From: Blasia pusilla
Taxonomy: Eukaryota
NCBI GenBank assembly: GCA_050084515.1
Contig: CM114271.1
Coordinates: 30,876,001-30,940,000, forward strand
DNA length: 64,000 bases
Direction of reading: 5' to 3'
Part shown: piece after piece, positions 5,008-39,950 of the stretch
Layout: each line of letters starts with the position of its first letter
Position numbering within the stretch: the first letter of the stretch is position 1
Notes under the pieces: model-generated
Told to the model about the DNA's origin: nothing
The model's input: only the letters and a program-made list of their open reading frames with translations
Databases searched by the model: none
Translations under genes and position numbers: made by a program

Positions 5008-7268
5008 TGTCGTGCGCATACACATCGTTCCACAACATGCATTGTTGTCATCGAACACACATACAAACACGCACGATTTCATGTTAACTCAAGACGTCCA
5101 AACAACAAGTATCAAAATATCTCCAATAAAATAAAATTCAATCTTTCTCGCAACATCATAATTCTCACATGTGTGCAGTCTCACATGTCTCTCTCAATTT
5201 CAAACCAAACCCACTCTCCTAATGAGAGGCTTAGGTTATACACACAAAACAAACAAGATCATAACTCCGCCGCCTCACGCCAAAAGGTTAAACAAAGAGC
5301 GAATGAGCTCTCAAGCTCTCTCTCCTTGAGGTATACCCCTCCTCTCTCCCAAACTCTCTCCATGGTAACCTATCCTCCCAAGTCACCTCCTTGGCTCTTG
5401 ACCTGATGTAGGAGGTCAAGCGCCACTGACCAAAAATAGAAAGTCAATCATATACTCAAAATGATACTTATCTAAAATAGTATGTTTCTTAATATGGCTC
5501 CTAATGAGCCAAAATGAAGGGGAAACCTACTCTCTCAAGTTTCCTGGGGCCTCAGCAGGTAATTCTCAACCTGCTGAGCGTGTCCTCCACTACTCACGAA
5601 GGAGCTCTACTAGATCTCACCGATCTATCCTAAAACTCATGGCATCCAAACAACGAGACAAGAAGTACCAAGATATCTCCAATTGCCCTCCTAGTTCGTG
5701 GTTAGGTCCCTCTAACTCCAAATAGTCATCTATCCCTACCTACCATGACATACATCTCTCGGACGCTAAGAGCAAGAAGGCCGGGTGCTCATATGGCCCC
5801 ATCGTTAGTCGCCTTCTTGTCATCCATGTCATAGACACAAGTCGGAATGTAGAACTACCTACTCTATGTACATCTTGGACACATCCATCGTCCTTGAGGA
5901 ACCCTACTGAGAGATGGCGTCAAACATGCCATATGCCATCCTCTCGAACATCCATCACAGACTAGCATAGTGGCTGCACCACGGGCAGAACCACACAACA
6001 TACACTTCAAGCCTGCAGAAACTATTGCTAAGCTCGGATCAACTATACCGTCAATGTTCGGAAGATGATATGGCGCACAGTTACGCACATGGTCCTTCCA
6101 AACCATACCATCGTATCCCTCCAATAAGACAACACACGATGGCAAAACCTCACGCACTCTCAAGATGGTGCGCCCTACAGTCACATCCAACATCGTGGGT
6201 GTCGTCTATTGCAAGTAGACATAGTCTCCTTGATGAAACCTCCGGAGAGTAGGTCGATAATCACCTCCCGAATAGTCGCATACCTCAACGTATCCCGATG
6301 TTGTGCAATCGCCAAGTTCTCAAACGCCATGGGCATCACTCTCCGAAACAACTCAGCCCTCTGAGAACATGCTCGCATCCATACATCAGGGTCATCAAGG
6401 TTCAACACCTCACTAGTATATCGACGAATGGCCGCACGTAAATCTGGCTCTTAGCCATAATGCAACAAGTATGGTGAGAAAGACGCTAAGGATGCTTGTC
6501 TGCTGAATCTGTATCCCATCGCCAACCATGGCAACTGAAGGTCCTAATCTCCTAGGTGACCTCTGTGCAAGCCATACTTGCGTAGTCCTCTCTTTACCGT
6601 CTGCACAACCCGCTCCGCTAGTCCATCCGCCTTAGGATGATCTCGCGAAGTAATGCGGTGGTCGATTAGTGCCTGATCACATAAGGCCTGAAACTCCATG
6701 CGGAACTCTATACCCTGGTCTATCAACACCTCAGCTGATGCACCGCAATGACTTAGCACTGGATCTAGGAAGGCATATGCTACTCCCTCACTCGCTATGT
6801 CAGGCAATGCAACCAACTCTATCCACTTCGAGAAATGCTCGACCATCACCAACACATAACGACTATGGCGCTCTGTCAAAGGCAAAGGTCCTACAAAATC
6901 CAAACTCCATCTATAACCTAAATCCATGATCGAAATTGGATGCAACTATAGAGTTGGAGCATTGAACTATGCTCGGACTCGATCACACACCATGCATCTG
7001 GCAACAAACTGCTAAACGTCAATCTGCATGCCTCGCCACCAATACTGAATCTACAGCAAGCTGTATGTCCGCTTCACTCCAAAATGACCCAACTCTTCGT
7101 AGGCATGACGCACCGAACGTGCTCTCTCGAAAGGATGAGGCACTACACGCACTCTACCATCCTCCCACACTTGCAATACATGTGTGCCCTCCCAACGGAA
7201 CCGTCTGGCTCGTTGTAGGATCCGATCGCACTCTCTAGCACCCACTGTGCTCGCGAGGCTGCCAGTAC
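5008..7268 (-). mobile_element. Ty3/gypsy-type element, 3' part: integrase, PHD finger, terminal repeats (partial B1 5635-5682, A2 5127-5634, B2 5008-5126)
   Basis: Inverted copy of 12970-15326. Ends in ...CGCACGACA at 5008. Confidence 0.9.
5864..7260 (-). pseudogene. Retroviral-type integrase (HHCC + DDE) with C-terminal PHD finger, disrupted by stops and frameshifts
   Basis: ELGHFGVKRTY...CMVC; WSLDFVGPLP...VLIDQG...ADGLAERVVQTVK; PHD CMLC...LVCDGC..GWHMACL.P.L..VPQGRWMCPRC. Confidence 0.92.
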
Positions 7269-8210
7269 CACCATCCACCATCCATCATCGGCCGTTGCCG
7301 TTGCCTAGCGCTACTCAGAGCCGCATTTGGCTGTTGTCCACCCTTTGGTTGCCATTGCCGCCATTACGGAGTGGAGGATCTTCCACGACCACCATTGATT
7401 CTCTAACTTGGGTCGCCACCACGTACTTTGGTTTGGCCACCACCGTCATCGTAGATTCTCATCAACCAGTGATGGTAGGTGACCTCAGGTTATGGTATTT
7501 GAGTTTTCATTTCATGTTGCTATGTTGGGAATGGTAGCCGCTCGACGATGATCGAGTACTGTGCCGTGACGCCCGTAGCCGCAACGCGCCACTGATTGCC
7601 GCGCCGTGTCGCATGTGGCCGCACTGCACCATCTCGATCGCGAGCCGCTCCTTCACTAAGGTGAATGTGAATTTCTGATTGAGGATGGTATCCCGCTGAG
7701 TGCCGTGCCGTTTGTAGCCGTTCCGTGCCGCAACGGACCGCTGGACCTGCACTGCACATCGAGGAGGTTTGAGCAGCGTCAGTACGAGAGGAGTACAACT
7801 TGCTGATTGGAGGAGTTGTCTTCACGACCAAGTTGGGATCGAGATTTGCAGTTGTCGAGGAGCAATATCGACATTATTGTCAGGTTACCCATTCTAGTCT
7901 CTTACCCTACACGTGTGAGGGATTTTCGGATATTGGGAAGTGATTTGGGATATTGGGTTTCGTGCTGATGCTAGAAGCATCGATGATGTATGGGTTTAGG
8001 GGACATAGACCTATGTGGGATGTCCAGAGTTGAGGATGGTTTGTCGATGAGACGATAGATCGGTTGATTTGCCGCACCACGTTGCTTGTTGCCGCACAAC
8101 ACACATCTTAGTGAGAGAGTGTAGATTGAGTGCCGCAAGTTTAGTTTGAGTGATTGAGGGATTACTCACGAGATTGAGAGTGATCATGTGAGAGGGGCAC
8201 GAGGGCCATC

Positions 8211-10800
8211 ACGACGTCCTTTCGGGATTTTGAGAGGCGAGGTAGTGGACCTGAGAGTAGCTCTGGAGGGTTTACCCGGAGTGGTGCGAGGTTTCGAGGG
8301 TCTCCACATGAGAGACCACCTCGATCTCCTTTTGTGTCGTCTTCAGACAAGGGGGAGCATGTAGAGGAGTGTGTTAGTGATCCACCATACACATTGAGTG
8401 GTCCTAGCAGTTGGGTGTACGAGATGGACAACCGGGGTAGAGGACCGCGTAGGTTTTTGGGTGTTGTAGGCACCATAGAGCTACACGACTTCATTGCGGA
8501 GTTGAGGAGTTTGTGTGACTCACAACGGGCTAGGAACTCTAGAGAGTTCAACCTGTTTACAACATGGAACGGTATGTTCCAGCATTTAGAGGGGACGCCC
8601 ATGGACGATTACCATGAGTTCTCCCCCAGATATGCCTAGGAGATTGAGGCATGACGACTCTATTATGACCCACAATATGTTTCATGGACGGAGCCGTTCC
8701 TAGATGAGGAGGAGGAGTCAGGAGAGGCTACTTCCTCTTCCACTAGTGATTTTTTAGAAGGGGTCACTCGCATTGGAGCAGTTGCACCATCTAGTCGGGT
8801 TCGTCCCAAGTTCAACCCCGTGGTTGAGCTCTTTGTTGAGTTGAGGGCGAGCTACCAGGGGGTACGGATGGAGAAGTTGCGGAGCATCCACAACTTCCAG
8901 AGGCGCCCGGGTGAGAGTTTGCATGAGGCTTACACTTGCTTGCGTTGGTTGATCAACGTCACTCAGGGGATGACAGAGGCTCAGGCTATCCAGTCATGGT
9001 ACGCGATGTTGGACCGGATCCTGCGGACACGGGTGCGGGAGAGGGTGCTTATTATGAACACCTCCCCTACTTTGAGAGATGTTTTTAGGACCGTCGAGAA
9101 CATTGAGTGCAACATGGCGGAGGAGAGCGTAGCTGCCATGGGTTCTGGGCGAGAGCAATCACGATTGTCTACACCACCTGTGCAGCAACGTGGACTCCGA
9201 GATAGGTCAACTGTGGCACCACGAGCTCAAGGAGGATACCGGGAGGCCGTGCCACAAAGACCTGCACCTTCATATGGGGCTCACCAGCAACTGCCTACTA
9301 TTACTTGTTGGTCAAAGGTGGAGCCCATCATCAGCGCGATTGCACTCGTCAGGGTCATGGACGTGTGCCTCAGCATGGAGGAGGAGATGGTGCTACACCA
9401 AGAGGTTATCAGTGTGACTATTGTCAGAGGTATGGTCATACATGCGCCAGATGTTTCAGTTTACATCATGAGTTACGTCCGGACCGAGGGTCAGAGAGGG
9501 CACCAGAGTGAGTAGCCGGTCTGGGTGGGGCTAGAGGTCGTGCACCAGGTGGTCCAGTTGGGGGACGAGGAGCTGGAGTTTCCCGACATGGTGGTGGAGC
9601 TGCCCGTGGAGGAGGTAGAGTCCCTCCACCTCGACGCGTCGAGGGAGATGCCGAGCGTGAGGCTGGGATGGCTGCTCAGATACAATAGCTACAAGAGCAG
9701 ATTGCCGCCATGGCATTGAGGTTACCCGATGCCAGATTCGTGGCATCGACATCATATGGAGCAGCCAGAGACATGTAGGATCCTGGTTGGATGTGCAGGG
9801 TTGCCCAAATGGAGGCCGCCGTAGTTGTGACGCGTGGAGCAGCTGCAGAGTGGGATCCACAACGAGGGGAAGCGAGGAAATAGACTAGGCTTCCTCAGTC
9901 TTTCACGTTGTCTGAGGCGATGAGGACCCCATCAATGGATCCTGATCAGAGTTCCTGGAGAGTTGGTGATGTTGTTGGTGTGCAAGCACGGAGGGCGATG
10001 GGAGAAGCAAGTGCGAAGACTCCTATTGTTGATGCTCATGAGGGGCATGTGTCGAGCACGTTGTTGAGGGCGGCGACCGTCGTGTACCGCGCTCCTTTAT
10101 TTTCTGCTTTCAATGTTATGACGTTGGGAGGTATGCCCCCCGAGGTTTTTCTGCTGGCCGCAATGCTATGTGAGCATGGAGTTGGAGTTCCTACATCACG
10201 TTCAGAGGTGATTGCAGAGGAGGTGATGGACCTGCCCTTGGAGCGGATGCTCGGGCCATCCACGTCAGATTCATGGCAGGCTGCACCTGCTAGGATGGCG
10301 GAGATGCCCGCTAGACCCGCGATAGAGCGTGCTATGGTTTCTCCTGGTGTTGTGTTGATGGATAAACAGGGAGAGGTCTTCTAGTTGGTCAGGCCTGGAG
10401 GTAGAGCTTTTAGTCCGCAACGCATCTTATTGGATTCAGGAGCGCAACCCCTGATGTTGGGGAAAGCGTCATTCAGAGGATTGGGCTTGACGAGAGCCAA
10501 TGTGGAGCGTTGTCCATTCCGGATACAGACATCCTTGCGTGGAGCAAGTACCACTCAGTATATCATCCGACAGGAGGTCGTGGTGAGGATTCGCCCAAGA
10601 CATCCTACAGATGAGTCCGTGGTGCGAGCCAAGGCAATAGTGAGTGATGCAGAGTCCTACAACGTCTTGGTTGGTGGAGCAGTGTTATACCCGATGGGAT
10701 TTTCCCTAGATTACTGGGTGGAGTCTGCGTCGTATAGACCAGGATGGCAGTTAGGTGATGGGCGTCTTAGCTCATTATCTATTTGATTCACAGGTGCAGT
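8211..10800 (+). pseudogene. Gag (two CX2CX4HX4C zinc knuckles) and aspartic protease, degenerate
   Basis: Gag-like FQRRPGESLHEAY. Knuckles CWS(C)GGAHHQRDC and CDYCQRYGHTCARC. Protease active site ILLDSGAQ. Confidence 0.85.
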
Positions 10801-11145
10801 GATCGAGCGACGGCGAGGACATATGGCGACCTTAGCAGCATTTAGCAGTGCCATCACTCGGCTAGTGATTTGATTGAGGGACATGTCCATGCAGAGGAAA
10901 CTCCCGTTCTTGACATTTCTATGGAGAGGAGTGTCATAGTAGCTGCATCAGTTTGTGGAGGAGAGGTGCCGCTTTGGGGCTCGACTAAGGAGCTTCGACG
11001 CTTAGCCACTGAGCATGTGCAGACCGCGTGGAGCAAGATATTTGCACTAGAGTGTGACGGGTCAGAGGAACCCTAGGTAGGCAAGAGTGTTGCTATGACC
11101 CCTTTGGACACCACCCCAATTGTGTGGTGCATCCCAGAGAGGGGT

Positions 11146-11648
11146 TTTCGGGTGTTGGATCTCTTTGGAGGGATCAGCACTGGATTAGCTGTTGTTTTGC
11201 ACGGTGGAGTGCGCGCGCAGCAGTACCTATATGTGGAGATTGATGATGTTGCGAGGCGCGCTTCACTTCACCATGTGGCGCTTTTACGCCTCCATTTTCC
11301 TGACTTGTTGTGTGCGTCCGCCATTCAAGGTTACCAGAGTTTCCTACCGAGGGACATTTCATTGTTGGGGGCGTAGGACTTGGAGCGGGTAGGGACCATA
11401 GACTTGGTCATTGCTGGTTGGCCGTGTCACGGCCAATCAAGTGTTGGACGAGGTAGCGGGTTAGTTGACACTCGGTCCAGGTTGTTTTGGGAGATGATAC
11501 GGATCTTGCAACATTTACAGGAGCATCAGTCTCGTTCTCCAACATACATTTTGGAGAATGTGCCAATTTTGGGCGATTCAAGGTCCCGCGTGGTGACGAG
11601 TGCACATTAGGTGGGCGCATGGATCGGCCCGGAAGTGTTGTTAAATGC
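11146..11648 (+). pseudogene. C5 cytosine DNA methyltransferase domain, N-terminal half (motifs I-VI), in the polyprotein frame
   Basis: Motif I RVLDLFGGI, motif II YVEID, motif IV DLVIAGWPCHG (catalytic PC at 11422-11427), motif VI YILENV. One internal TAG; truncated by a deletion at about 11648. Confidence 0.93.
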
Positions 11649-12770
11649 ATGCAAAGGTCTTCAGTTCATCGGATTTTCGAGCCAGGTACCATCAGCTACC
11701 TATCAGATTGGAGGACAAGCAAAAGACGACATTTTGGGGCATCGATCCTCACGAGAAGGATTGTTTGTACCAGTGGCGGTTCTTACCATTTGGGTTTAAG
11801 AATGCCCTCAGAGGGTCATGGATAGGATCTTGGCAGGTCTGGATTTTGCTAAGTGTTATATTGATGACATCGTAGTCTTTAGCGCCACGGTTGAAGAGCA
11901 TGAGCGACATCTAGAGGAGGTGTTTTGATGATTGCAGTTACATGGGCTGAAGCTACATCTAGGCACGTGCAAGTTCTTCTACGACAAGATTGAGTACTTG
12001 GGTCATACGATATACCCTGGGGGCCTTTGTGTGCAATAGACAAAGGTAGAGGCTATTTTATGCATTCCACGTCCTACAGATGTGAGTTGAGTTCGTACAT
12101 TCATGGGATTGGCAAACTTCTATCGACGGTACGTCAAGGGTTTCAGTTCGATTGCGAAGCCACTAACCTTGATGACCAAGGTGGATCAGGAGTGGCACTG
12201 GGGGGATGAGCAAGAGAGAGCATTTCACATGCTCAAGGATCATACTCCTGCAATAAAAGAGCCCACCTCGCAAGCTTCCCTGTAAGCTTGTTGGACTCCA
12301 TCAACCACTTAAGTGGCTAATGATCAGTAATGATGGTAAAGGGATTGCCGAATAGATAGCATCTGAAATGTGCGACAACCCACATTACAGCCAAGCACTC
12401 ACCCTCATACGAGCTATACTTCGCCTCTGCAGCGTTGTTTGAGCGACTAGCATAAGTCACCATGAACTCTCTACCATCATCGTCATGCTGGGTGAGCACG
12501 GCTCCAAGCCCCAACATGCTCCAATCGGTATGCAACAGGAAAGGATGACCCTTGATCGGTCTCCTCAATATGGGCGCAGACGTCAATCTTTCCTTGACGT
12601 CATCTTGGTTTACCATCCCAGGTCTATGCACCACATGGAAGTCACTTGAGCATCTGAAATGCTCAAGGATCCATGTGGTGCATAGACCTGGGATGGTAAA
12701 CCAAGATGCAGATGGTTTGAGTCGTAACCCATGCCCGAGTCAGCGAGATGCGACTGGAGCTCGTTAGCAT
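11647..12770 (+). pseudogene. Reverse transcriptase and RNase H, degenerate; RNase H core (about 12240-12596) inverted
   Basis: HAKVFS.DFRARYHQ, KTTFWG, LPFGFKNA, CYIDDIVV, FMGLANFYRRYVKGFSSIAKPLT. On the minus strand LHTDWS..GLGAVL..YASRS..YSSYEGECLAV..TDH. Confidence 0.9.
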
Positions 12771-12969
12771 GGTGAGAGTGATGAGAGTGATAAGGAGTTG
12801 GTGCCAGGATGGTATGTGTCAGCCTATTTGGGCTTGTTGGCTATGGAGAGCCAGATTGCGGAGACTTCGATGGCGAGGTCTGATGGAGAGTCCTTAGATC
12901 CAGAGGCCGGTGAGGAGACGACAGGTGGCCGAGATATTCCCGACGATGGAGTGGTCTAGGAGTATCTAC

Positions 12970-14369
12970 GTACTGGCAGCGTCGCGAGCACAGTGGGTTC
13001 TAGAGAGCGGGATTGGATCCTACAATGAGCCAGACAGTTTTGGTGGGAGGGCACACATGTGTTGCAAAAGTGGGAGGATGGTAGAGTGCATGTAGTGCCT
13101 CATCCTTCGCAGAGAGCACGCTTGGTGCGTCATGCCCACGAGGAGTTGGGTCATTTTGGAGTGAAGTGGACGTACAGCTTGCTCCAGATTCGGTATTGGT
13201 GATGAGGCATGTAGACTGGAGTTCATCAGTTTGTTGCCAGATGCATGGTGTGTGATTGAGTCCAAGCATCGTTCAATGCTCCAACTCCACAGTTGCATCC
13301 ACTTCCGATCATGGGTTTAGGTTAAAGATGGAGTTTGGATTTTGGAAGACCTTTGCCTTTGACGGAGCGCCATAGTCGTTATGTTTTGGTGATGGTCGAG
13401 CACTTCTCCAAGTGGATAGAGTTGGTTGCATTGCCTGACAAAGCGAGTGAGGGAGTTGCGTATGCCTTCCTAGATCGAGTGTTGAGTCATTACGGTGCAC
13501 CAGCTGAGGTGTTGACAGACCAGGGTACAGAGTTCCGTAGGGAGTTTTAGGCCTTGTGTGATCAAGCACTGATCGACCACCGCACTACTTCGCGAGATCA
13601 TCCTGAGGCGGATGGACCAGCGGAGCGGGTTGTGCAGATGGTGAAGAGAGGACTATGCAAGTATGGCTTGCAGAGAGGTCACCTAGGAGATTGGGGCCTT
13701 CAGTTGACGTGGTTGGCGATGGGATACAAATTCAGCAGGCAAGCATCCTTAGCGTCTTTCTCATCCTACTTGTTGCTTTATGGTCGAGAGCCACAGCAGC
13801 AGCCATTCATCAATATACTGGTGGGGTGTTGAACCTTGATGACCGTGATGTATGGATGCGAGCATGTTCTCAGAGGGCTGAGTTGTTTCGGAGAGTGATG
13901 CCCATAGCGTTTGAGAACTTGGCAATTGCGCAATATCGAATACGTTGAGGTATGCGACCATTCGGGAGGTGTTTATCGACCTACTATCCGGAGGTTTCAT
14001 CAAGGAGACTATGTTAACTTGCAACAGATGGCATCCACGACGTTGGATGTGACTGCAGGGCGCACCATCTTGAGAGTGCGTGAGGTTTTGCCATCCGGTG
14101 TTCTCATATTGGAAGAACGCGATGGTATGGTTTGGAAGGACCATGTGCGTAACTGTGCGCCATGTCATCTTCCAAACATTGACGGTACAGTTGATCCGAG
14201 CTTAGCAATAGTTCTTGCAGGCTTGCGATGTATGTTGTGTGGTTCCGCCCGTGGTGCAGCCACTATGCTAGTTTGTGATGGGTGTTTGAGAGGATGGCAT
14301 ATGGCATGTTTGACGCCACCTCTCACTAGGGTTCCTCAGGGAAGATGGATGTGTCCCAGATATACATAG
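12970..14369 (+). pseudogene. Integrase with C-terminal PHD finger, degenerate
   Basis: HEELGHFGVK, WSLDFGRPLP, VLTDQGTEF, ADGPAERVVQMVK, then CMLCGSARGAATMLVCDGCLRGWHMACLTPPLTRVPQGRWMCPRY. Confidence 0.92.
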
Positions 14370-14550
14370 AGTAGGTAGTTCTACATTTCGACTTATATCT
14401 GTGACATGGATGACAAGAAGGCGACTAACGATTGTGCCACATGAGCACCCGGCCTTCTTGCTCTTAGCGTCCGAAAGATGTATGTCATGGTAGGTAGGGA
14501 TAGATGGTTATCTCGAGTTAGAGGGACCTAACTACCAACTAGGGGGGCGA

Positions 14551-15326
14551 TTGGAGATATTTTGGTACTTCTTGTCTCGTTGTTTGGATGCCATGAGTTA
14601 GCATGGGATCGTGCGTGTTTGTGTGTGTGTGTTTGGTGACAGCGATGTATGTTGTGTAACGATGTGTATACGCACGACAGTTATCATATCATTTAGGATA
14701 GATCGGTGAGATCTAGTAGAGCGCCTTCGTGAGTAGCGGAGGACACACTCAATAGGTCGAGAATGACCTACTGAGGCCCCAGGAAACCTAAGAGAGCAAG
14801 TTTCCCCTTCATTTTGGCTCATTTGGAGCCATATTGAGGAACTTACTATTTTAGGTGAGTACCATTTTGAGTATATGATCTACTTTCTATTTTTGGTAAG
14901 TGGCGCTTGACCTCCTATATCAGGTCAAGAGCCAAGGAGATGACTTGGGAGCATAGGTTACCATGGAGAGAGCTTGGGAGAGGGGAGGATTATACCTCAA
15001 GGAGAGAGAGGTTGAGAGTTCATTCGCTCTTTGTTGAACCTCTTGGCGTGAGGCAGCGGAGCTATGGTCTTGCTTACCTTGTGTGTGTAACCCAAGCATC
15101 TCATTAGGAGAGTGGGTTTGGTTTGACATTGAGAGACACATGTGAGAGCGCACACATGTGAGAACTATAGTGTTGTGAGAGAGATTTTATTTTATTTTAA
15201 TTGGAGATATTTTGGTACTTCTTGTCTCGTTGCTTGGATGTGATGAGTTAGCATGGGATCATGCGTGTTGTATGTGTGTTCGGTGACAGCGATATATGTT
15301 GTGTAGGGATGTGTATGCGTACGACA
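14551..15326 (+). repeat. 3' terminal repeat block: B1 (14551-14679), GT spacer, A2 (14682-15199), B2 (15201-15326)
   Basis: B1 and B2 are direct copies (TTGGAGATATTTTGGTAC...CGACA). A2 matches the reverse complement of 21523-22042 and 5127-5634. A purine-rich AGGGGGGCGA precedes B1. Confidence 0.88.
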
Positions 15327-15680
15327 CATGCCCAATTGCATCAAAAATCTCCTTAGGGGTGGGCATGGCATACCTATTGGCCTTCGTCTGCTGATTGATA
15401 GGTCGGTAATCTCCACACATTTGCTTATCCGTATAATTGCCATGCACATCCTTCTTGGCGGGCATGATAGTGGCACATGCATACTCTCCATGCGACATCT
15501 CCCCTAGTCCTGCTACAACCAAGTCCTGGCTCCTACTCTGCATCAAAGCCCTCTCCATGTCACTAAACCGGTAGGGTCGTCGGAAGATTGGCGCGTCACT
15601 CGACAACTCAATGTGGATCCCTAGACCCTTCAGCATACCCAAATCATGCATACTAAATGCAAAATATAACTCCTAAGGAA
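15327..15680 (-). pseudogene. Reverse transcriptase N-terminus
   Basis: IHIELSSDAPIFRRPYRFS...YACATIMPAKKD...MCGDYRPINQQTKANRYAMPTPKEIFDAIGH. Confidence 0.9.
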
Positions 15681-16059
15681 CTAGTGTATCCGGCGCCGCT
15701 CTCCTCCTGTCAACTTAGGGCCCTTATCTGGCTCCCAAGTCTCCATCTAAGGTAGGACTCTCCGACGTGGGTGTCGGTGGTTGCTATGGTGCAACCCCGT
15801 CTCGGACAATGGAACTCTCATCTCCACATGCAGCACCCGGAACTAGACTCGATGTTGTGGCTATCATCTCCTAGCGTACCTACAAAACATCCCAAGAAGT
15901 CCAAGGGTGTCTCTCCCGATCATCCCTGGTGTGTTGATCTCCTCGGGTCTCGCCCCAGCCGCTGCCTCAACCACCTCGGTAGGCATGGGCTCACCAACGC
16001 AACATCTGTCATCTGTTGCGTCCTCAAACGACGTTGCTCTACTACTCCTAAGCTGAAAA

Positions 16060-16996
16060 TCCATGTCAAGCAGTTCAGGTCCATTGCCTAACCCAAGACA
16101 TGACGACGTGATGCCTCTGATAGTGATGGTACTGTCGTCACTCTTGTGCGGAATCCCATCGCTCGCTCTCGCTCATCGGCGTTGGGCTCCACCAACCTCT
16201 GTACTTGGTCATCCCAAACCAAGCCAGGTCCGGACATCTTGAATGCATAGGAAGCGGGAAAAATCACCAATATGGGAAAGGCTACCCGTGGCCTCCCAAT
16301 CCTGTTGACCACAGTCAACGGCGGTCGATCATCTAGCCTCACTGCCTGTGATCGACGGCCTGGATCCAATATAGAATCCACCAACAAATCGGAGGGGCGC
16401 TTCACTCTTGCATATGTCCTCCGCAATACCTCATGTGGTACCAAGTTGGTCCACCAAAGACGCGGGTGATGTGCTCGTGAACCCACACTCGCCGCATCTA
16501 ACAACACTGTTGGGCCGATCCATGCGCGCACTTGATGTGCACTCATCACCACACGGGACCTCGAATCGCCCAAAATTGGCACATTCTCCAAAATGTATGC
16601 TGGAGAACGAGGCTGATGCTCCTGTAAATGTTGCAAGATCCGCATCATCTCCCAAAGCAACTTGGACCGAGTGTCAAAAACCCGCTACCTCGTCCAACAC
16701 CCGATTGGCCCTGATACGGCCAACCAGCAATGACCAAGTCTATGGTCCCTACCCGCTCCAAGTCCTGCGTCCCCAACAATGAAATATCCCTCGGTAGGGA
16801 ACTCTGGTAACCCTGAATGGCGGATGCACACAACAAGTCGGGAAAACGGAGGCGTAACAGCGCCACATGGTGAAGTGAAGCGCGCCTCGCAACATCATCA
16901 ATCTCCACATATAGGTACTGCAACACGCGCACTGCAGCATGCAAAACAACAGCTAACCCAATGCTGATCCCTCCAAAGAGATCCAACACCCGAATA
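16060..16996 (-). pseudogene. Full-length DNMT3-like C5 cytosine methyltransferase domain (motifs I-X); one frameshift, one stop, catalytic Cys changed to Tyr
   Basis: RVLDLFGGI, VEID, DLVIAGWPYQG, YILENV, DAASVGSRAHHPRLWWTNL (motif VIII), ERERAMGF (IX), RRHVLG*AMD (X). Confidence 0.93.
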
Positions 16997-17339
16997 CCCT
17001 TCTCTGGGATGCACCACACAATCGGGGTGGTGTCCAAAGGGGTCATAGCAGCACTCCTGCCTACTTGGGGTTCTTGTGACCCGTCACACTCTAGTACAAA
17101 TGTCTCGATCCACGCAATCTCCACATGCTCAGTGGCTAAGCGTCGAAGCTCCTCAGTTGGGCCCCAAAGCGGCACCTCTCCTCCACGAACTAATGCGGCT
17201 ACCATGACACTCCTCTCCATAGAAATTTCAAGAACGGGAATATCCTCTGCATGGACATGTCCCTCAATCAAATCAGTAGGCCAAGTGATGGCACTGCTAA
17301 ATGCTGCTAAGGTCGCCATCTCTCTTGGCCGTCGCTCAA

Positions 17340-19919
17340 TCATTGCACCTGTGAATCGAACGAGTAATGAGCTAAGACGCCCATCACTAACTGCCATCCT
17401 GGTCTATACGACGCTGACTCCTCCCAGTAATCCAGGTAAAACCCCATCGGGAATAACATTGCTCCACCAACCAAGACGTTGTAGGACTTTGCATCAGTCA
17501 CTATTGCCTCGGCTGGCACCACGGACTCATCTGGAGGATGTCCAGAGCGAATCCTCACCACAACCTCCTCTCGGGTGATATACTGTGTGGTACTTTCTCC
17601 ACGTAAGGATATCTGTATCCGGAATGAACAACGCTCCACATCGGCTCTCGTCAAGCCCAATCCTCTAAATGACGCTTTCCCCAACAGTAGGGGTTGCGCT
17701 CATGAATCCAACAAGACGTGCTGCGGACTAAAAGCTCTACCTCTGGGACTCACCAACTGGAAGACCTCTCCCTGGTTATCCACCAACACAACACGCGGAG
17801 AAACCATGGCACGCTCTATCATGGGTCTAGCAGGCATCTCTGCCATCCTAGCAGCCGCAACCTGCCATGAATCTGACGTGGACGGCCCTAGCATCTCCTC
17901 CAAGGGCAGGTACATCACCTCCTCTGCAATCACCTCTGAACGTGATGTAGGAACTCCAACTCCACGCTCACAAAGCGTAGCGGCCAGCCGAAACACCTCG
18001 GCGGGCGTACCTCCCAACGTCATAACATCGGAATCAAAAAATAAAGGAGCGCAATACACAACGATGGCCGTCCCCAACAATGTGCTCGACACATGCCCCT
18101 TCTGAGCATCAACAATCGGAGTCGTCGCACTTGCTTATCCCATCGCCCTCCGTGCCTGCACACCAACAACATCACCAACTCACTAGGAACTCTGATCAGG
18201 ACTCATCGATGGAGTCCTCATCGCCTCGGACAACGTGAAAGATTGAGGAAGCCTAGTGTGTTTCCTGGCTTCCCCTCGGTGTGGATCCAACTCTATGGCT
18301 ACTCCACGCGTCACAACTGCGGCGGCCTCCATCTAGGCAACCCCGCACATCCAACCAAGATCCTCCATATCTCTATATGATGTCGATGCCATGGATGTGG
18401 CATCGGGTAACCTCAATGCCATAGCAGCAATCTACTCTTGTAGCTGTTGTATCTGAGCAGCCATCCCTGCCTGACGCCTGGCGTCTCCCTCGACGCGTCT
18501 AGGTGGTGGGACTCTACCTCCTCCACGGGTAGCTCCACCAGCCTGTCGGAAAACTCCAGCTCCTCGTTCCCCAACGGGACCACATAGTGCACGATCTCTA
18601 ACCCACCCGGACCGACTACTCGCTCTGGTGCCCTCTCTGGCCCTCGGTCCGGACGTAACTGAGGAAGTAAACTGAAACACATGGCTCGTGTATGACCATA
18701 CCTCTGACAATAGTCACACTGATAACCTCCTGGTGCAGCGCCATCTCCTCCTCCATGGTGAGGCACACGTCCATGACCCTAACGAGTGCAATCACGCTCA
18801 TGATGGGCTCCACCACATGACCAACAAGTAATCGTAGGCGACTGCTGCTGATCCGCATATGAAGGCGCAGGTCTCTGTGGCATGGCCTCCCGATATCCTG
18901 CCTAAGCTCGTGGTGCCATAGTCGACCTATCTCGAAGTCCACGTTGCTGCACAGGTGGTGCAGACAATCGTTACTGCTCTCGCCCAGAACCCATGGTGAC
19001 TACGCTCTCCTCCGCCATGTTGCGCTCAATATTCTCAGCAATTCTAAAAACATCTCTCAACGTAGGGGAGGTGTTCATAAGAAGCACCCCTCCCGCACCC
19101 GTGTCCGCAAGGTCTGATCCAGCATCGCGTACCATGATTGGATAGCCTGAGCCTCTGTCACCCCTTGAGTGACGTTGATCAACCAGCGCAAGCAAGTGTA
19201 AGCCTCACGCAAACTCTCACCCGAGTGCCTCTGAAAGTTGTGGATGCTCGCAACTTCTCCGTCCGTACCCTCTGGTAGCTCGCCCTCAAATCAGCGAAGA
19301 ACTCAACCACGGGGTTGAACCTGGGACGAACCCGACTAGATGGTACAACTACTCCAGTGCGAGTGACCCCTCCCAAAACATCACTAGTGGAAGAGGAAGA
19401 AGCCTCTCCTGACTCCTCCTCCTCATCTGGGAATGGCTCCGTCCATGATACATACTGTGGGTCATAATAGAGTCGCCATGCCTCAATCTCCTGGGCATAT
19501 CTGTGGGAGAACTCATGGTAATCGTCCATGGGCGTCCACTTTAAATGCTGGAACATACCGTTCCATGTTGTAAACAGGTTGAACTCTCTAGAGTTCCTAG
19601 CCCGTTATGAGTCACACCAACTTCTAAACTCCGCAATGCAGTCGTGTAGTTGTATGGTGCCTACATCACCCGAAAACTTACGCGGTCCTCTACCCCGGTC
19701 GTCCATCTTGTACGCCCAACTGGTAGGACCACTCAATATGTATGGTGGATCACTAACACACTCCTCTACATACTCCCCCTCGTCTGAAGATGACATAGAA
19801 GGAGATTGAGGTTGTCTCTCACATGGAGACCCTCGAAACCTCGCACCACTTTGGGTAAACCCTCCAGAGTTATTCTTAGGTCCACTACCTCGCCTCTCAA
19901 AATCCTGAAAGGACGCCGT
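17340..19919 (-). pseudogene. Gag and aspartic protease, degenerate
   Basis: Homologous to 8211-10800. Knuckles CWSCGGAHHERDC and CDYCQRYGHTRAMC; protease VLLDS. Confidence 0.88.
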
Positions 19920-21522
19920 GATGGCCCTCGTGCCCCTCTCACATAATCACTCTCAATCTCGTGAGTAATCCCTCAATCACTCAAACAAAACATGCGGCAC
20001 TCAATCTACACTCTCTCACTAAGATGTGTGTTGTGCGGCAACAAGCAACGTGGTGCGGCAAATCAACCGATCTATCGTCTCATCGACAAACCATCCTCAA
20101 CTCTGGACATCCCACACAGGTCTATGTCCCCTAAACCCATACATCATCGATGCTCCTAGCATCAGCATAAAACCCAATATCCCAAATAACTTCCCAATAT
20201 CCAAAAATCCCTCATACGTGCAGGGTAAGAGACCAGAATGGGTAACATGACAATAATGTCGATGTCGCTCCTCGGCAAGTGCAGATCTCGACCCCAACTC
20301 GGTCGTGAAGACAACTGCTCCAATCAGCAAGTCGTACTCCCCTCGTATTGATGTTGCTCAAACCTCCTCGATGTGCGGTGTAGGTCCAGCAATCCGATGG
20401 GGCACTGGCGGCACGGAACAGCACTCGGCGGCATACCCTCCTCAATCAGAAATTCACACACTCTGCACCTTAGTGAAGGAGCGGCTCGGCGATCGAGACG
20501 GTGCGGTGTGGCCACAAGCGGCACGGCGCGGAAATCGGCGATGCGTCGCGGCTACGGGCATCTCGGCACGGTACTCGATCATCGTCGAGCGGCTACCAAT
20601 CCCAACATAGCAACATGAAATGAAAACTCAAACATCATAACCCGAGGTCACCTGCCATCATTGGTTGATGACAAAACTCTAATGATTGTGGTGGCCAAAC
20701 CAAAGTACGAGGTGGCGGCACAAGTAAGAGAATCAAAGGTGGTCGTGGAAGACCCTCCACTCCGTAATGGCGGCAATGGCAACCAAAGGGTGGACAATGG
20801 CCGAACGCGGCTCTGAGCAGCACTAGGCGACGGCAGCGGCCGACGGTGGACCGTGGACCGTGGACCGTTGAAGGTGATGGGTGACCGTTGATGGTGATGG
20901 TTGACCTTTGACGGTGATGGTTGACCATCGACGGTGACTATGACGGCGACGGCCGCCGCCGGTCCGGCGGCTGATTTAGGGTTTGAACAATTTAACCCTA
21001 AAAATCTCCTAGCAATGGCAGTTTTGCAAGATTGACCATAAATTTTTGCTCACAACTCCAAATTGTGTATCATTTGATGCACACCATGCACAACTTCACG
21101 ATCTACGACAACGTCAAAAACTATTTGGAATCGAACATTCTAGTAAAAATTGACAAGGACTGTTGTAAAGCCCAATGTCTCTTTCTCCTACACAAAATTT
21201 GTCAGCGCTTCCGCCCTGATTTCTCCCAACGAAAATGTAAAACATGTGAGAACACAAATCAGCAAGCTACATGGTGCTCCTAGGAGCACCAGCATGGGGC
21301 AACCTGCCCCCATACTCAATCCCTATCAAAAATTGGGCAGCGCTTCCGCGCGCCACTCTTCTACACGAAAAATCGGCAAAGGAAACATCACAAGCAAGCG
21401 ACTCTTGCTCCGGTGAGCACTCCCATGAACCGCTGAACGGGGGATACGATCCCCAACCTGCAAAACCAGCGAGTGACCACCGAGCTCCCCCATGAAGCTC
21501 TCTCACTCACTCATTCTCTCTT

Positions 21523-22042
21523 TGTAAAATAAGATCCAATCTCTCTCACAACACCATAGTTCTCACATGTATGCACTCTCACATGTCTCTCTCAATGTCA
21601 AACCAAACCCACTCTCCTAATGAGAGGCTTGGGTTACACACACAAGGCAAACAAGACCATAGCTCCGCCGCCTCATGCCAAGAGGTTCAACAAAGAGAGA
21701 ATGAGCTCTCGAGCTCTCTCTCCTTGAGGTATACCCCTCCCCTCTCCCAAGCTCTCTCCATGGTAACCTATGCTCCCAAGTCACCTCCTTGGCTCTGGAC
21801 CTGATGTAGGAGGTATAGGGCCACTTATGAAAAATAGAAAGTCGATCATATACTCAAAATGGTACTTACCTAAAATAGTAAGTTCTTCAATATGGCTCCA
21901 AATGAGCCGAAAAGAAGGGGAAACCTGCTCTCGTAGGTTTCCCAAGGCCTCAACAGATCATCCTCGACCTACTGAGCCTGTCCTCCACTAATCACAAAGG
22001 CGCTCTACAAGATCTCACCGATCTATCCTAAAAGACGTGACA
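21523..22042 (-). repeat. 5' terminal repeat A1 (520 bp, TG...CA), not followed by repeat B
   Basis: Aligns with 5127-5634 and, inverted, with 14682-15199. The sequence internal to it is unrelated to B. Confidence 0.88.
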
Positions 22043-26273: not shown

Positions 26274-29200
26274 TGTAACATCTTAGTTTGACGTAGGTAG
26301 AGTTCTATCGCGTCGACAATATAGAGAGTCAGCGGGCTATTTGGGTGTAACTTCATCTTGAGATGTCGGATGAGGTTGGCGACAGGTCTATTGCATCGGG
26401 AACGTTGTTTATGGCGATTTCCCTATTTTGGTTTTAGTCTGTAGGGTATAAGAGTGAGAAAGATGGCTTTCTCAAGCCATCTTTCTCATGTTGAGCCTTA
26501 GGAGCGACTCTCTTGCATATACGTGTGTGGGTGTGTAGGAGTTAGGGTGCTAGCAGCCGGATTCTCTCATAGCAGAGGGTGGATGTGGTTCGATATGCTA
26601 ATGTAGATTCATGAGTGGAGTTTGAGGCCGGGTGAGCCGTTTTTACTACTCTTGATTTTACATGAGAAAGATGTGAGGGGGTAGAGAATTCGTTGTTTGC
26701 AGGTAGGCAAGCGAGTTGCCTCCTTCGGGAGCCCCTAGAGACGTTGAGTGACGTTTGTTTTTCATTTTTTCTGTTCAAAAGGTCGTGCGCGTTAGCGCTG
26801 TATGCTTTCTCAGGTTTTTGTCGGCGCAAACTGATTGGGGACAATGGCAGAGTGTAGTACGGTGTGGGGCAGCGAGTGTGGCATCGACGGGTGAGCGGCA
26901 CATGGTGAGAACGTTGGTAGTCGGGAAGAGAAGAGCACCTTTAGGTCTTGCAGCCGCCGGGGGCTGTCAAGTAAAGGCGGCTAGTTAGGGGTCTAGGGTT
27001 AGGTCATAGCCATATTTATAATTCGGACGTATATATTGGCAGGTAGGTACGTATACGTGTTGTATTATGGGAGTGGCAGCTGAGTGCGTTGGGCTTTGCG
27101 TGAGGAAGGAGACGGGAGATGGGAATGCGTCCATAGGGACGCGTGCCGTAGGGAGTTAAGGCGGGCAGGAGGTGCAAGAGGGAGCCGCGCGGGCTCTAGT
27201 GACAAGGCCGAGCCGCGGAGTAACGAAAGAGAGTTGGGGCTCCAAGTTAGGGGGAGCCGCCATTAAGGCTCCAGGATGGAGGGAGGTAGGAGAGGCGCAT
27301 GGGGATGTGTGAGCTAGGTCGGAAGGAGGAAGGGCAGACTCCCGGTAGAGCAGAGTGCAGGGCCCGAAGGGAGGCAGCTGGGTCTCGGAGCAGAAGGCTC
27401 TAGAGGAGAGAGTAGAAGTCGGAACTGCGAGGTAGCTGGGAAGGAAGGGAAGGCATAGGGACTCATGGAGCCATGTCGAGGGCGTGCATGGCGCAAGTCG
27501 GATGGGGTCGCATAGGGCAATGGGCCCAAACTGTAATAATGACACGGTCCGGGAATCTCCAAGCTAGGGCACGGGGCTGCGGGAGTAGTAGTCGGAAGCT
27601 GAGAGTGTGAAGCTAGGGTTCAAGGACAAGAAGGTGCGGGGTACAGGGCCGTGGTTAGGAGGAAAGAGGCTGGGTCAAGGCCAGAGGGTCCGCCAGAGAG
27701 AAGGGCAGCGTGCCTGAAGGAGGGTTGGGTAAAGGAAGCTCTTCATAGGGCCGCGTACGCAGTTGAGGCCGGACGGAGTAAGACAAAACGAACGGGGTAG
27801 GATGGACCGAACGTGGTAGGGTCGACGGTGTGGCCAGGCTACCAGGTTGGAGTCAGCCAAGGGTGGGGCAGAGTACGTGGTCAGAGCCACGATATGGTTG
27901 TAGGAGATTTACATGGTTGGGCGGATGTGGTGGAGCTACTTACATAGTTAGGAGAGCTTCGTGGTTGAGTGGGCTTGTACTGAGTTTTTCAGAGTTGAGA
28001 TTTTCTGGACAATATTTTTGGAAGACTGCATTGACTGACAATGGGTGAGTTACATCGACACTTTATGACGGGGTGTTACTGATGGAGTGTGAGTATGCTG
28101 ATGCTGACGGGTAGTCCGCATCTGTTGACCGGAGAATCGACTTGCTATGCGAGGAGATGGTTATGTTGCAGAGGTTGCCATACCACATGGAGGAGTCAGT
28201 GTTGACGGTGCAATAGACTGATGGCGGGCGTGTTCAGGTTATCCATTCGAGTCCCTTTTCCCGTACTTATCTTGTGTGATTGAGAGTGTTGGGTATCGGT
28301 AGTTGCTGGTGTTAGATGGGAGTAGTGATGGTGACGAGTGTAGACTCCTTTCATGTGTAGCATGTTGGTGGATATATGGTGGTTTCCAAGTAGGGGTCAC
28401 ATGTATGACGCGAGAGTGTCAGTAGTTAGGTGATTTAGTTGGGAGGCTCATGGTGAGCCCGAGTGTTGAGCGTGCGTAAGGCCGGGTGTGTCATCACGGG
28501 ATTGGCATTAGCATAGGTGAGCTAGGAAGGAGTGTGGGAGACTCTTGGTAAGTCTAAGTGCTTGAGCGAGTGAGACAGGGTTGTCATCACGGCGTTCTTC
28601 CAGGGTTTGGAAGAACGGGGTAGTACGAGTAGTGGTAGTGGAGTGACACTGAGTGGTGTGAGATATCGAGGGGTTTCGAGTGAGGAACCACCCCAACTCC
28701 CATCCGTGGCTGGATCATCATCACTAGACAGCGGGTCTGGTGACAAGATCTTGGACGGGGACGGTGATACGTGGAGAGAGATGGACGACATGGGCCACCG
28801 GGGCATGCGTCGTTTCTTGGATGCAGTAGGCACCATAGATTTAGATGATTTTATCCAGGAGTTCGACACGTGGTGCGACTTCTAGGAGATATGGATCCCT
28901 ATGCGGTTCAACCCTTTTATGGCATGGAAGGGGTTGTTCCAGCACTTGGAGGGTCCGCCGATGGATGACTATATGGAGTTTTGATCTCTATACTCTGTAG
29001 AGATCGATGCCGGGAGGGTTTATTGGGCTCCAGGGTATGTGTCCACTAGTGGATCGCGAGGCGTATGATGGGATAGTGAGGGCGGAGAGACCTACACCAT
29101 CAGCTCGGGGACTAGATGGAGAGGATGGCAGTGAGAGTGGTGAGGTGGCAAAGACCTCTCCTGGTAGAGGACCACCAAGTTTCAGTCCTACAATGGAGTT

Positions 29201-31410
29201 CTTCTGATAGTTGGGGAGGAGCTACCAGGGTGTGCAGACCGACAAGCTGAAGAGTCTACAGGATTTTCAGCGGAGATCGGATGAGAGTATGAGGGAGGCG
29301 TTCACGCGCATGCGACGGTTGATCGTTGCCACATATGGGGTGAGTGAGGCGCAGTCAATACATTATTAATATGGGGCGCTCGATGAGGAGCTACGGAGGA
29401 GAGTTCAGGATGCAATGGTGCATCACACGCGGAAGCCCACATTAAAGGTGGTCTCCAAGTTGTCTGAGCAGGTAGAGCTCAACATGAGTGAGGAGCAGGT
29501 GGGGACCACAGGATTTTCGCGCGATACAACGGGTCGACGAGTTGGAGTAGATCTACAAGTGCCTCAGAGAGTAGGGCGGGTATTGTGAGCCAATGAGGCA
29601 ACGGCCCGTTCCGACATATGTTTCCCAGCATGGACCATGGTTGGCTTGTTGGACTTGTAGTGGATCACATAGGCAGAGGGACTGCCCACAGCATGGGAGA
29701 GGGCCGCGGTCACCTCCGATTGCTCACGAGCCACAGAGGATGGCCCAACCACAGTTGCAATTTGATCATTGTCATCGATATGGTCACACTAGGAATAGGT
29801 GTTATGATCTTCGCCGAGAGGTACGTCCAGAGGTAGGCAGAGGACTTGGGGGCGAGAGAGTTGGTGGATGATCGTGGTGGTAGAGTGCCATCACCACTCA
29901 GGGAAGATAGAGGATGTGCATCCAATGCAGCGCTCCGATCCTCACTCGCATCGATGAGTTGGAGCAGAGGATTGCTGCCATGACAATGATGCAGCCAGTG
30001 ATAGGCACAAAGCCAAGAGTAGCTAGTGTGGCTCTAGCCTCCACGTCGTATCAAGATACGGGGGAGGACTATACGGGATTAAGGTTTATGAGTAGTGTAG
30101 CTCAGGTTGAGGTTGCTGCGGTGGTGACTTGGGGTGCTGCGAGAGTAACCGAGCAATCGAGAGTGACCCACAGGAGGGGACCGATGGGGCGGCACGCATG
30201 GGTTCCCAAGTCGTTCACATTTTTGGAGGCGCTTCATACGCCATTGATGGTGCCTCGACGACCGGTAGTACCCACGGGTGGGACAAGTGCATCGACGTCA
30301 TGAAGAGTTGGAGAGTTGACTCCTATACCAGCTCGGGTGGAGCCAATGTCGAGCACGTTGTTGGAGGTGGCCACCAGGGTGAGCCAGACTCTATTGTTTT
30401 TCGCCATGGAGTTGGCGACATTGGGAGTTGGACCAGCGGAGGTGTCCCGGCTGGCCGCCACGTTATGTGAGCGTGGAGAGGTGATTGCCTCTCATTCAAA
30501 GGTAGTTGAGGAGGTGGTGGACTTGCCCTCACAGTAGGTGCTCGAGACGTTCCCCACTGAGTCATGACATGCTACAGCGGCGAAGTTGGTAGATATGCCA
30601 CCTAGGCCAGCGATAGAGCAAGCTATGATCACGCCAAGTGTGGTGTTGTTGGATAACCGAGCTGGAGTGTTTCGCTTGGTTAGTCCCACAGGTACGGTGT
30701 ACCATCCGCAGCGCGTCCTACTTGATTCGGGAGTGCAGCCCTTGATGTTAGGGAAGGCGGCGTGTTTGGCGTTGGGTTTACGGAAAGGCGACAACGAGCG
30801 TTGTCCCTTTCAGATAGAGACCTCTATTGGGGGCGTATCACCCATGCAGTACATGACTCGGCAGGAGTTAGTGATTAGACTCCAGTCAGAGCATGAGACG
30901 GATAGTGCGATGGTGCGTACTTAGGCGATTACGACACCGGCAATGTCGTATGATGTGTTGGTAGGGAGTACGATGTTGTACCTTCTAGGTTTCATTCTGG
31001 ATTTTTGGGAGGAGACGATTTCTTATCGGCCAGGGTGGCGATCAGGTGATGGACGAGTGAGCCATCTACTGGTGCAGTATACAGGGAGTAGTGGTGGTCG
31101 ATCATATGAGGATACGGTGACCACGTTTGGCAATATTCACATGTGGTGTTCGCTGATCAGGAGGGTTCGGGGAGAGGAGCACAAATGCGGAGGACATTCC
31201 CGTATCAGATAGTCCCACGGAGAGACATGCCAGGATGGGTGTCTCTTCCCATGGTGCGAAGCTTCGTTATTGTTGATGGGGACGAGCATTGAGATGCGTG
31301 GAGTGCAGAGGAGCTCGTGAGGCAGGCGTGGAGCCGTGTCTATGCTTAGGGCAGGGTACGAGAATGTTAGATCTCTTCGGAGGGATCAACACGACGGGTT
31401 GCTGCAATGT
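26274..31410 (+). mobile_element. Diverged relative of the DNMT-gypsy family, 3'-truncated: leader, gag, protease, start of DNMT
   Basis: Begins TGTAACATCTTAG (compare TGTCACGTCTTTTAG). Gag RRFLDAVGTIDLDDFIQEFDTWCD; knuckle CWTCSGSHRQRDC; protease VLLDSGVQPLMLGK; RMLDLFGGI at about 31361-31387. Confidence 0.82.
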
Positions 31411-38726: not shown

Positions 38727-39950
38727 CTACACAAAAGCTCGGAGAGTCGGTGTAAACGCCCATACCAAATGATGTGCACGAAGGAACTTCCAATCTGGCA
38801 ACCAGGTCAATGTCTCCTCTTTGGACTTGTCAAAAACGAGCACCCTGAAGGTGGAGTGCTTAAAGTGATGCTGATGCACAATGTAGAAAACCCCACGTTG
38901 AGAGAGACTACGAACAGGCGAGAAATCTCTCCAATATTCATGTCCCTGCCATTCGTGGTCTAGGTTGACCAGATCGCAATCCATTTTTTTAATCTCGTCG
39001 CCTAAATACTGGAAGTCTGCGCGACTTTCGTCTCCTTCTTCCCAGCATTCGTTGTCATACCAATCCACCAAAATGACATCATCGTTATGTGCAACAATCT
39101 GGAAGTTGCTTGGGAAGATCGATAGACCCGCCTCTTTAACAAAACTCCATTCCTCCAGCTCCACATTGTACTTCAGCAGTGCCCTTTCGACCATGTGAAA
39201 GTTACGCATCTCATAATGTACAAACCAGTAAAGACATCCCCCTCTACAGACACCTCTATTCGTGCTCTTCCACATTCTTCTCTCCCCCCACTCTCTATTT
39301 TCCTCAGGATCGGAATTTACGAGCACGGGTAGCCATCCACCTTGTTTCCAAGAGCGGGTGAAGGAATCATACACGAAAGTTTCAAATGGACTTTCTTCGT
39401 GAATCCCTGCGGCCACCAATTTGTAATTTCCAGTTTCTGGATTTACAACCAATCCTAGTAACATGAACTCAAAAGGGCAGCATGAGAATTCTTCAGGTAC
39501 AAGTTTTGCAGCCAACTGCAAATCTCTGAATTGCTTGGAGATAGGGTTGTAAACGGTGAATCTGTTGGGTGCGAGGGCATTGCTAAAACACAGAAGGCCT
39601 CCTTCAACTGCGACCAATGTGTCAGCGATCGAACTATGCTTCGCAGCGAAGGGGATAATCTGTCTCTCCCACCTGCTGCTGCTCGAATCATGAAAGGCGA
39701 GGGACGCCTCTTCACATAGCTCCTCGTTCCCTGCCATCTCACCACCTGGGTGATGATAGAAGAGAACCGGCTTCGAAGACTCGCGTGGGTGTATGAACCC
39801 ACAGGAGTCTATGGATATCTTCCACCGCTTACAAACTGAACGAAATCGCATCAGGCTCTGAAAAGGAAGCTTTGAAAGCACCTTCTCCACCAGCTCGTAA
39901 TTCAGTTTCTCCCACGCCTCCAGCGCCAGCCGAATCGCCTTCTCGCCCAT
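38727..39950 (-). CDS. Intronless F-box protein with kelch-like/F-box-associated C-terminal region (407 aa from MGEK)
   Basis: WEKLNYELVEKVLSKLPFQSLMRFRSVCKRW F-box, followed by VAVEGGLLC, VYNPISKQFRDL, YKLVAAG, VYDSFTRSW, GCLYW. The listed ORF start at 40133 is a non-ATG codon. Confidence 0.9.
   Translation of the reverse strand: MGEKAIRLALEAWEKLNYELVEKVLSKLPFQSLMRFRSVCKRWKISIDSCGFIHPRESSKPVLFYHHPGGEMAGNEELCEEASLAFHDSSSSRWERQIIPFAAKHSSIADTLVAVEGGLLCFSNALAPNRFTVYNPISKQFRDLQLAAKLVPEEFSCCPFEFMLLGLVVNPETGNYKLVAAGIHEESPFETFVYDSFTRSWKQGGWLPVLVNSDPEENREWGERRMWKSTNRGVCRGGCLYWFVHYEMRNFHMVERALLKYNVELEEWSFVKEAGLSIFPSNFQIVAHNDDVILVDWYDNECWEEGDESRADFQYLGDEIKKMDCDLVNLDHEWQGHEYWRDFSPVRSLSQRGVFYIVHQHHFKHSTFRVLVFDKSKEETLTWLPDWKFLRAHHLVWAFTPTLRAFV

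Follow-up and report, generated by a model that had tools for sequence, protein, structure and literature searches.

The window analysed here, a 64,000-nucleotide stretch of Blasia pusilla DNA (assembly GCA_050084515.1, contig CM114271.1, positions 30,876,001 to 30,940,000), contains pieces of a Ty3/Gypsy long terminal repeat (LTR) retrotransposon that encodes gag, protease (PR), a DNMT3-like domain, reverse transcriptase (RT), RNase H (RH), an rve integrase and a PHD finger, in that order. Copies of this element do not carry the same full LTR at both ends and instead have split direct repeats: a single unit, henceforth referred to as A, at the 5′ end (A1), and the composite B1-s-A2-B2 at the 3′ end, in which s denotes the short junction between B1 and A2. 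This A...B-A-B layout is real and constant across the copies of the family. The integrated form is probably circularly permuted relative to an ordinary two-LTR cDNA, whose LTR would read B-s-A, through cleavage at an internal palindrome.

Because the window locus is rearranged, the layout cannot be read from the window alone and other copies were needed. The host genome (390 Mb, 26 contigs) was searched, and the layout was scored in samples retrieved with queries blind to the neighbour being scored. With a B-A-B query, all 40 of the 40 scored matches span nearly the whole query at about 90% identity; both sides of 24 of these were inspected, and the copy's own 5′ end, where present, consists of A followed by untranslated region (UTR), never by B. 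B1 is followed by s-A in 25/29 copies and ends flush in 4/29. A1 is flush with the flank in 25/29, three copies being truncated and one, at the rearranged and ambiguous locus L103, having a B end before A1. B-s-A runs on into B in 27/29 copies (one is truncated and one, L224, continues into a 26-nt primer-binding-site (PBS) stub), and A|B is preceded by B1-s in 19/29, with solo A-B units in 6/29 and truncation in 4/29. B1 lies behind the PHD finger and the polypurine tract (PPT) in 29/29 copies of one sample and 28/29 of another. Exact-pattern counts over the genome gave at least 348 B-s-A junctions and at least 1340 A1/PBS junctions, i.e. 5′ ends; the PBS pattern detects 16/29 known sites, and only 26 of the junctions lie in the range that is common to both coordinate lists. 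The A1/B1-A2-B2 split described in an earlier sequence-only reading of the window is constant over the genome copies, and neither of the two findings that this reading had named as fatal turned up: no copy has A+B at both ends, and B-A-B is not a separate mini-element.

A perfect 4-bp target duplication flanks 19/24 copies with both ends, compared with 3/552 cross-paired flanks; this count leaves out the rearranged loci L103 and L106, each of which matches at 3/4 positions, and becomes 19/26 with them. Duplications were also observed in 3/3 relatives with both ends. Pfam matches above cut-off were obtained for RVT_1, RT_RNaseH, Integrase_H2C2 (E 1.7e-11), rve (E 2.6e-13) and PHD, and no Pfam match to a chromodomain was present in the window copy. 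The PR-RT-RH-integrase order, the gypsy-type RT and RH, the rve domain and the TG...CA ends with their duplication are those of Ty3/Gypsy elements, and one relative, P0047, has Ty3 Gag-Pol as its best solved match (E 1e-91). The DDE integrase named by the sequence-only reading is confirmed by the two integrase domains and the family-wide duplications, and the duplications that it proposed to seek around TGTCAC...ACGACA exist, at 4 bp. Its comparison with tyrosine-recombinase elements holds for the repeat order, which is indeed that of PAT/Ngaro elements; the enzyme found here is an rve integrase.

The boundaries of A and B were then compared with the landmarks of reverse transcription. B starts at the base directly following the PPT, the same 10-mer of which is present in 41/58 copies. 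A ends at the base directly preceding a 13–16-nt stretch that is exactly complementary to a second stretch, 28 nt past a TATA-like box in A. In the window copy the complement is perfect over 16 nt, the best of 300 shuffles reaching 10 nt, and the pairing extends over 15–17 nt in this copy and in 7/9 others. Calculated from an assumed RNA start, the mean pair probability is at least 0.66 in 21/24 copies. A second family of this genome has another primer and PBS sequence in the same geometry, with at least 12/13 pairs in 26/26 loci with a PBS (30 fetched), and a third family, represented by metagenome contigs (72 loci), has a third sequence pair. In all three families, GT closes the primer, TGA(A/G)CC or TGAG comes next, and the inferred start sits within an inverted repeat; it may be speculated that this repeat hides the duplicate primer in the 3′ copy. 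The start of B coincides with the PPT end, and the A|B join with the primer end, in the three families with their different sequences. The PPT start and the primer end are the points that define the tips of LTR cDNA. Since B starts at the PPT end and A ends at the primer end, the reverse-transcribed LTR would be B-s-A.

Complementarity between the PBS and a 5′-LTR stretch just after the TATA box is the Tf1-type arrangement, and it supports the non-canonical priming that the sequence-only reading had envisaged for an integrase-using lineage. The same reading had reported no primer site after A1, which is correct for a tRNA-type site (in the 5′-end set, the 12 nt next to the A1 end contain TGG in 0 cases) and incorrect for the self-priming PBS at 21525-21510. 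Priming by tRNA was rejected on the absence of TGG after A1; the self-primer accounts for the site. Reads from three raw RNA runs, whose source organism may not be the host of the window, cover the element with a sense bias of about 10:1 and are mostly 90–95% alike.

At the B1/A2 join, the spacer is AC in 20, GT in 13, GC in 12, AT in 10 and other in 3 of the 58 copies. With a GC spacer, the junction is a 10-bp palindrome built of both termini, and the variant spacers would represent methylation decay of GC in a CAG/CTG context. Metagenome relatives whose repeats otherwise differ (L131, L186) keep the palindrome core. Among the same 58 copies, 38 have a flush A2|B2 join, 14 carry an additional A at this join and 6 show other forms of it; the join is flush without shared letters in the second family (L269), and inserted letters are present in L061 and L177. 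On a tree of 52 copies, from which the 6 odd joins and the join columns were left out, the flush and +A states require 13 changes compared with 12.4 when shuffled, and a control site 5 nt away requires 5 compared with 16.6. The scatter of the A2|B2 variants on the tree suggests, at modest power, that the join is made anew in each cycle. The sequence-only reading had taken B1/A2 for a stored circle junction; it is better read as a pair of integrase sites in U3, and the circle-like join is A2|B2.

These observations are well accommodated if the integrated form is the permuted two-LTR cDNA proposed above. The RNA would begin inside A1, and its first ~13 nt would pair with the site just 3′ of A1 to start minus-strand synthesis in the manner of Tf1, as the conserved pairing implies. 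The PPT would prime the plus strand, making the start of B the left tip of the cDNA, a placement that follows the observed geometry. Ordinary strand transfers would then yield [B-s-A]-internal-[B-s-A], the tips of which carry no integrase site. Integrase would cut the palindrome s of the left LTR after CA on both strands, which would leave two processed ends with 2-nt 5′ overhangs, and these would be inserted with the 4-bp duplication that is seen in the genome. End-to-end joining of the two original tips would create A2|B2 and the product A1...B1-s-A2-B2; it could take place before integration (as a two-LTR circle), after it (by host repair) or through a template jump of RT. Cleavage of the palindrome, the cDNA and the circle are proposed on the basis of genomic copies. 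We lean, with somewhat less assurance, towards the wider reading that in a green-plant clade of LTR retrotransposons the integrase sites have shifted from the tips of the cDNA to U3, making cleavage of an internal palindrome the normal integration route, and that the DIRS-like repeats of this clade arose convergently, by circular permutation of an ordinary LTR cDNA.

Several observations weigh against the permuted-cDNA proposal. The mirror product, A-B-s-A...B, was found in 0 clean cases in four samples (29, 29, 29 and 26 sites), with L103 ambiguous, and its absence argues against a freely cut closed circle, whose two palindromes would be identical. The mirror product would not arise if RT jumped onto the left tip, or if the cut came at a stage when the left LTR alone was double-stranded; L256, which reads B-s-A-B-s-A, fits either. 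In the third family only 2/10 A1 rows beat all shuffles, the others being decayed or having lost the primer, and the primer helix was not seen in single lowest-energy folds of the window copy. The RNA reads, possibly from another host and so no evidence on the start site, show no sharp start or end and run over both termini. On the tree, a second control site is not clearly clustered (7 changes compared with 8.3), and half of the forks are open, which limits the power of the join test. Finally, five A...B copies and the 6/29 solo A-B units agree with the model but no less with recombination at a later time than insertion. Target duplications flank all four flush-ending copies, which are A...B elements, and the six solo units as well. 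A...B copies are commoner among the relatives (10, compared with 6 with A after B1), a proportion that short-read assembly could inflate; two of them (L147, L182) carry duplications, and they may be one-LTR circle products or later deletions. Additional B or B-s-A-B units were observed directly after B2 (L061:2452-3409, L068, L214, L256), possibly as by-products of end joining or through insertion at the end of another copy.

The alternative that survives best, although we consider it unlikely, is templating in the style of DIRS/Ngaro elements, in which the RNA would reach B2, the A2|B2 join would be inherited, B1-s-A2 would serve as the template that rebuilds both tips of a linear cDNA, and integrase would trim those tips normally. 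The absence of A-B-s-A...B is then explained without extra assumptions. RNA reads pass the B end into unlike sequence (22, 72 and 39 loose ends in the three runs), but reads also enter the A start from the flanks (20, 45 and 24), so the read-through is not specific. Within a single copy, B1 and B2 diverge little less than they do across copies (6.3% compared with 7.5%; own partner best in 6/58), which would also suit templating, in a comparison too noisy for use. Templating is opposed by the position of the A|B join, which in three families coincides with the ends of the primer and of the PPT, by the scattering of join variants on the tree and by the conserved PBS right after A1, which puts the start of the minus strand at the end of A, not of B. 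Far less credible is a tyrosine recombinase, encoded or borrowed, with recombination of a circle at the palindrome in the manner of PAT/Ngaro. It would account for a repeat order that, in the available text of PMC6681497, is the same in Ngaro/PAT-like elements, but no Phage_integrase match (PF00589) was found in 12 frames of the window copy at E 0.01, frames so decayed that a very weak remnant could escape; the rve integrase is 76–82% identical to its nearest relatives, and the random 4-bp duplications, together with the TG...CA ends, largely refute the idea. The solo A-B units with duplications and the rearrangement of the window locus could speak for an ordinary A+B-LTR element in which the 5′ B was lost and a local duplication supplied B1, or for a B-A-B mini-element unrelated to the rest. 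Both ideas are refuted by the examined 5′ ends, none of which has B after A, by the constant position of B1 behind PHD and PPT, and by recurrence of the layout in the second family and in another host.

The DNMT3-like domain of Pol, a feature that the sequence-only reading did not mention, has a 67%-identical relative, P0001, whose closest match of solved structure is DNMT3A (E 6e-12). The named relatives belong to Marchantia, Calypogeia, Riccia, Sphagnum, Klebsormidium, Monoraphidium, Haematococcus and Tetrabaena; liverwort proteins are the nearest, which fits a bryophyte host. The integrase-PHD proteins of K. nitens are 49–52% identical to the window family, and no K. nitens DNMT was among the matches listed. 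Bryophyte-type copies have the order PR-DNMT-RT, and algal-type relatives (L193, L196, L197; P0027, P0030) have the DNMT between RNase H and integrase; because its position differs, the domain has moved or was gained twice. No B-A-B was found in the DNA examined at the algal-type loci L193 and L196, and L193 contains GCACGACA, which resembles the right terminus. Three annotated Marchantia proteins, P0004, P0007 and P0010 (Mp8g17980, Mp6g11220 and Mp4g09160), are gag-PR-DNMT open frames of the clade, and the catalytic PCQ motif is intact in P0010 (Mp4g09160). A role for the putative methyltransferase in marking one of the two palindromes at CAG/CTG sites, and so deciding which is spared, is a doubtful addition to the model.

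The features of the window are listed in Table 1. The sequence-only reading had treated 14551..22042 as one element, but this span comprises A1-gag-PR-DNMT-5′RT and a 3′ end that points the opposite way; beyond its limits, 11646-14549 holds the remaining RT, RH, integrase and PHD. A1 (minus strand) and A2 (plus strand, within B1-spacer-A2-B2) form an inverted pair, and their opposite strands are the result of local rearrangement. The nested locus is composed of the minus-strand 5′ piece, the plus-strand 3′ piece, the piece at 7268-11645 and the second 3′ end at 7268-5008. No target duplication is common to A1 and either 3′ end of the window. A1 differs from A2 in 51/518 columns and from the copy at 5127 in 58/508, and 31–44 differences were counted within eight full copies. 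The repeat positions given earlier were correct to a base or two, as were A1 without B behind it (22042-21526), the B1-A2-B2 order of the 3′ end, the junction ACGACA-gt-TATCATATC and the outer termini TGTC...GACA. The second 3′ end (5008-5692) has the same layout, as had been reported, but its deletion takes out the B1/A2 junction itself and not B1 alone.

Table 1 Features of the element and related copies in the window.
Feature	Positions	Strand	Remark
A1, 5′ repeat, 517 bp	21526..22042	-	TGTCAC start flush with unique flank
TATA-like box	21728..21733	-	28 nt upstream of primer stretch; promoter role inferred
Putative self-primer at inferred RNA 5′ end	21690..21705	-	16-nt perfect complement of 21525-21510
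Self-priming PBS, immediately 3′ of A1	21510..21525	-	perfect complement of 21705-21690 within A
Decayed gag (two CCHC knuckles) and protease-like region	17370..19710	-	translation, tblastn to Marchantia proteins; no Pfam match above cut-off
DNMT3-like C5 methyltransferase domain inside Pol, frameshifted	15980..17060	-	
RT, 5′ part, cut at CATG	15327..15740	-	
Rest of RT from same CATG, RNase H, integrase, PHD	11646..14366	+	Pfam matches above cut-off
RNase H, locally inverted	about 12240-12604		inside plus-strand piece 11646..14366
Integrase H2C2 and rve	about 13104-13604	+	
PHD finger	about 14229-14360	+	
PPT	14541..14549	+	stops exactly at B1 first base
B1, start of U3 in proposed LTR	14550..14679	+	3′ end ACGACA
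Spacer gt between B1 and A2	14680-14681	+	
Decayed palindromic junction s, GACA-nn-TGTC type	14676..14685	+	proposed head-to-head integrase sites
A2	14682..15199	+	90% identity to A1, inverted relative to A1
B2	15200..15326	+	right terminus ACGACA
Second 3′ end: integrase 3′ part, PHD, PPT, B1 remnant, A, B2	5008..7268	-	
A of second 3′ end	5634-5127	-	B2 down to 5008
Internal fragment of another copy (UTR-gag-PR-DNMT part)	7268..11645	+	90% identical
Second, diverged family, 5′ part with gag-PR	26274..31400	+	
Second-family copy: A1; primer; PBS	26274-26659; 26478-26491; 26660-26673	+	

The RT frame is broken and resumed at the same CATG on opposite strands (15327, 11646), with the right terminus of the element abutting one side; this break may stem from one-ended self-insertion, or from nested insertion with subsequent inversion. 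The plus-strand RNase H region (12240-12708) is locally inverted and adjoins an inverted repeat of ~108 bp. Elsewhere in the window, an open frame of 484 aa encoding an F-box domain (E 1e-10) was identified at 38730-40181 (-), a ~351-bp repeat array of about seven units, 60–90% alike, at 58800-61210, and a ~550-bp tandem pair with 74% identity at 50326-51450.

If the permuted-cDNA proposal is true, the family would be a natural high-copy case of a retroviral-type integrase working by internal palindrome cleavage and would supply an uncomplicated route by which ordinary LTRs become DIRS-like split repeats. The range of Gypsy-DNMT3 elements, previously one alga, widens to take in liverworts, Sphagnum and chlorophytes, and some of the proteins concerned are annotated as genes of Marchantia. 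With A1 and A2 taken for the LTR pair, standard LTR finders would see neither a TG/CA end nor a duplication at A2 and would discard this abundant family or set its limits wrongly.

DIRS-like repeats on a Gypsy element are already in print for Klebsormidium. KnitGypsy-Dnmt3 of Klebsormidium nitens is described by de Mendoza et al. 2018 as combining DIRS-like repeats with Gypsy domains (Fig. 4c legend), with DNMT3 in Pol and repeats in the order A-coding-B-A-B; the available text of that description is silent on target duplication, primer site, junction palindrome and mechanism (PMC5890265). The DNMT lies between PR and RT in the window family and between RH and integrase in the algal-type proteins. 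Klebsormidium-type elements are cited for streptophytes in a preprint (10.64898/2026.05.21.726589) and in PMC12344493, in the accessible parts of which the ends are not discussed, and the accessible part of a plant LTR survey (PMC6317226) requires TG/CA-ended LTR pairs and does not mention PHD, methyltransferase or Marchantia. A literature search that lay outside Repbase and most subscription papers found neither a description of the mechanism nor one of bryophyte members, so that absence is not proven; the explanation by a permuted LTR cDNA was not found in print and appears to be new here.

Tf1/Sushi elements and Tcn1 have ordinary LTRs at both ends. As in the window family, the PBS of Tf1/Sushi and of plant Tcn1 complements the RNA 5′ end instead of a tRNA, according to the available text (PMC4600332, PMC6317226). 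The window family differs from them in having PHD and DNMT3 and no chromodomain match. In the circle junctions of IS3- and IS30-family elements, a DDE enzyme acts on abutted ends with a 2–3 bp spacer; these are DNA transposons, whose transposase makes the junction in each cycle, and the junction is not carried in a repeat. PAT, Ngaro, VIPER and TATE elements and SymbioDIRS-Dnmt3 share the A1...B1-A2-B2 order, according to the available text, but encode a tyrosine recombinase, whereas the window family carries rve together with a PPT and a PBS and leaves duplications of 4 bp; the resemblance of the repeats is probably convergent. Two-LTR circles are described as end-joining products (PMC7197481) and can feed integration (PMC4372172), in the portions of these papers that were available. 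According to the corresponding portion of PMC1180852, foamy virus integrase cuts the palindromic LTR-LTR junction after CA and leaves 2-nt 5′ overhangs, which is the cut geometry proposed here. In foamy virus and HIV-1, as these sources present them, the palindrome arises from joined cDNA tips and belongs to a side route, whereas in the window family it would form part of U3, leaving the tips without an integrase site.
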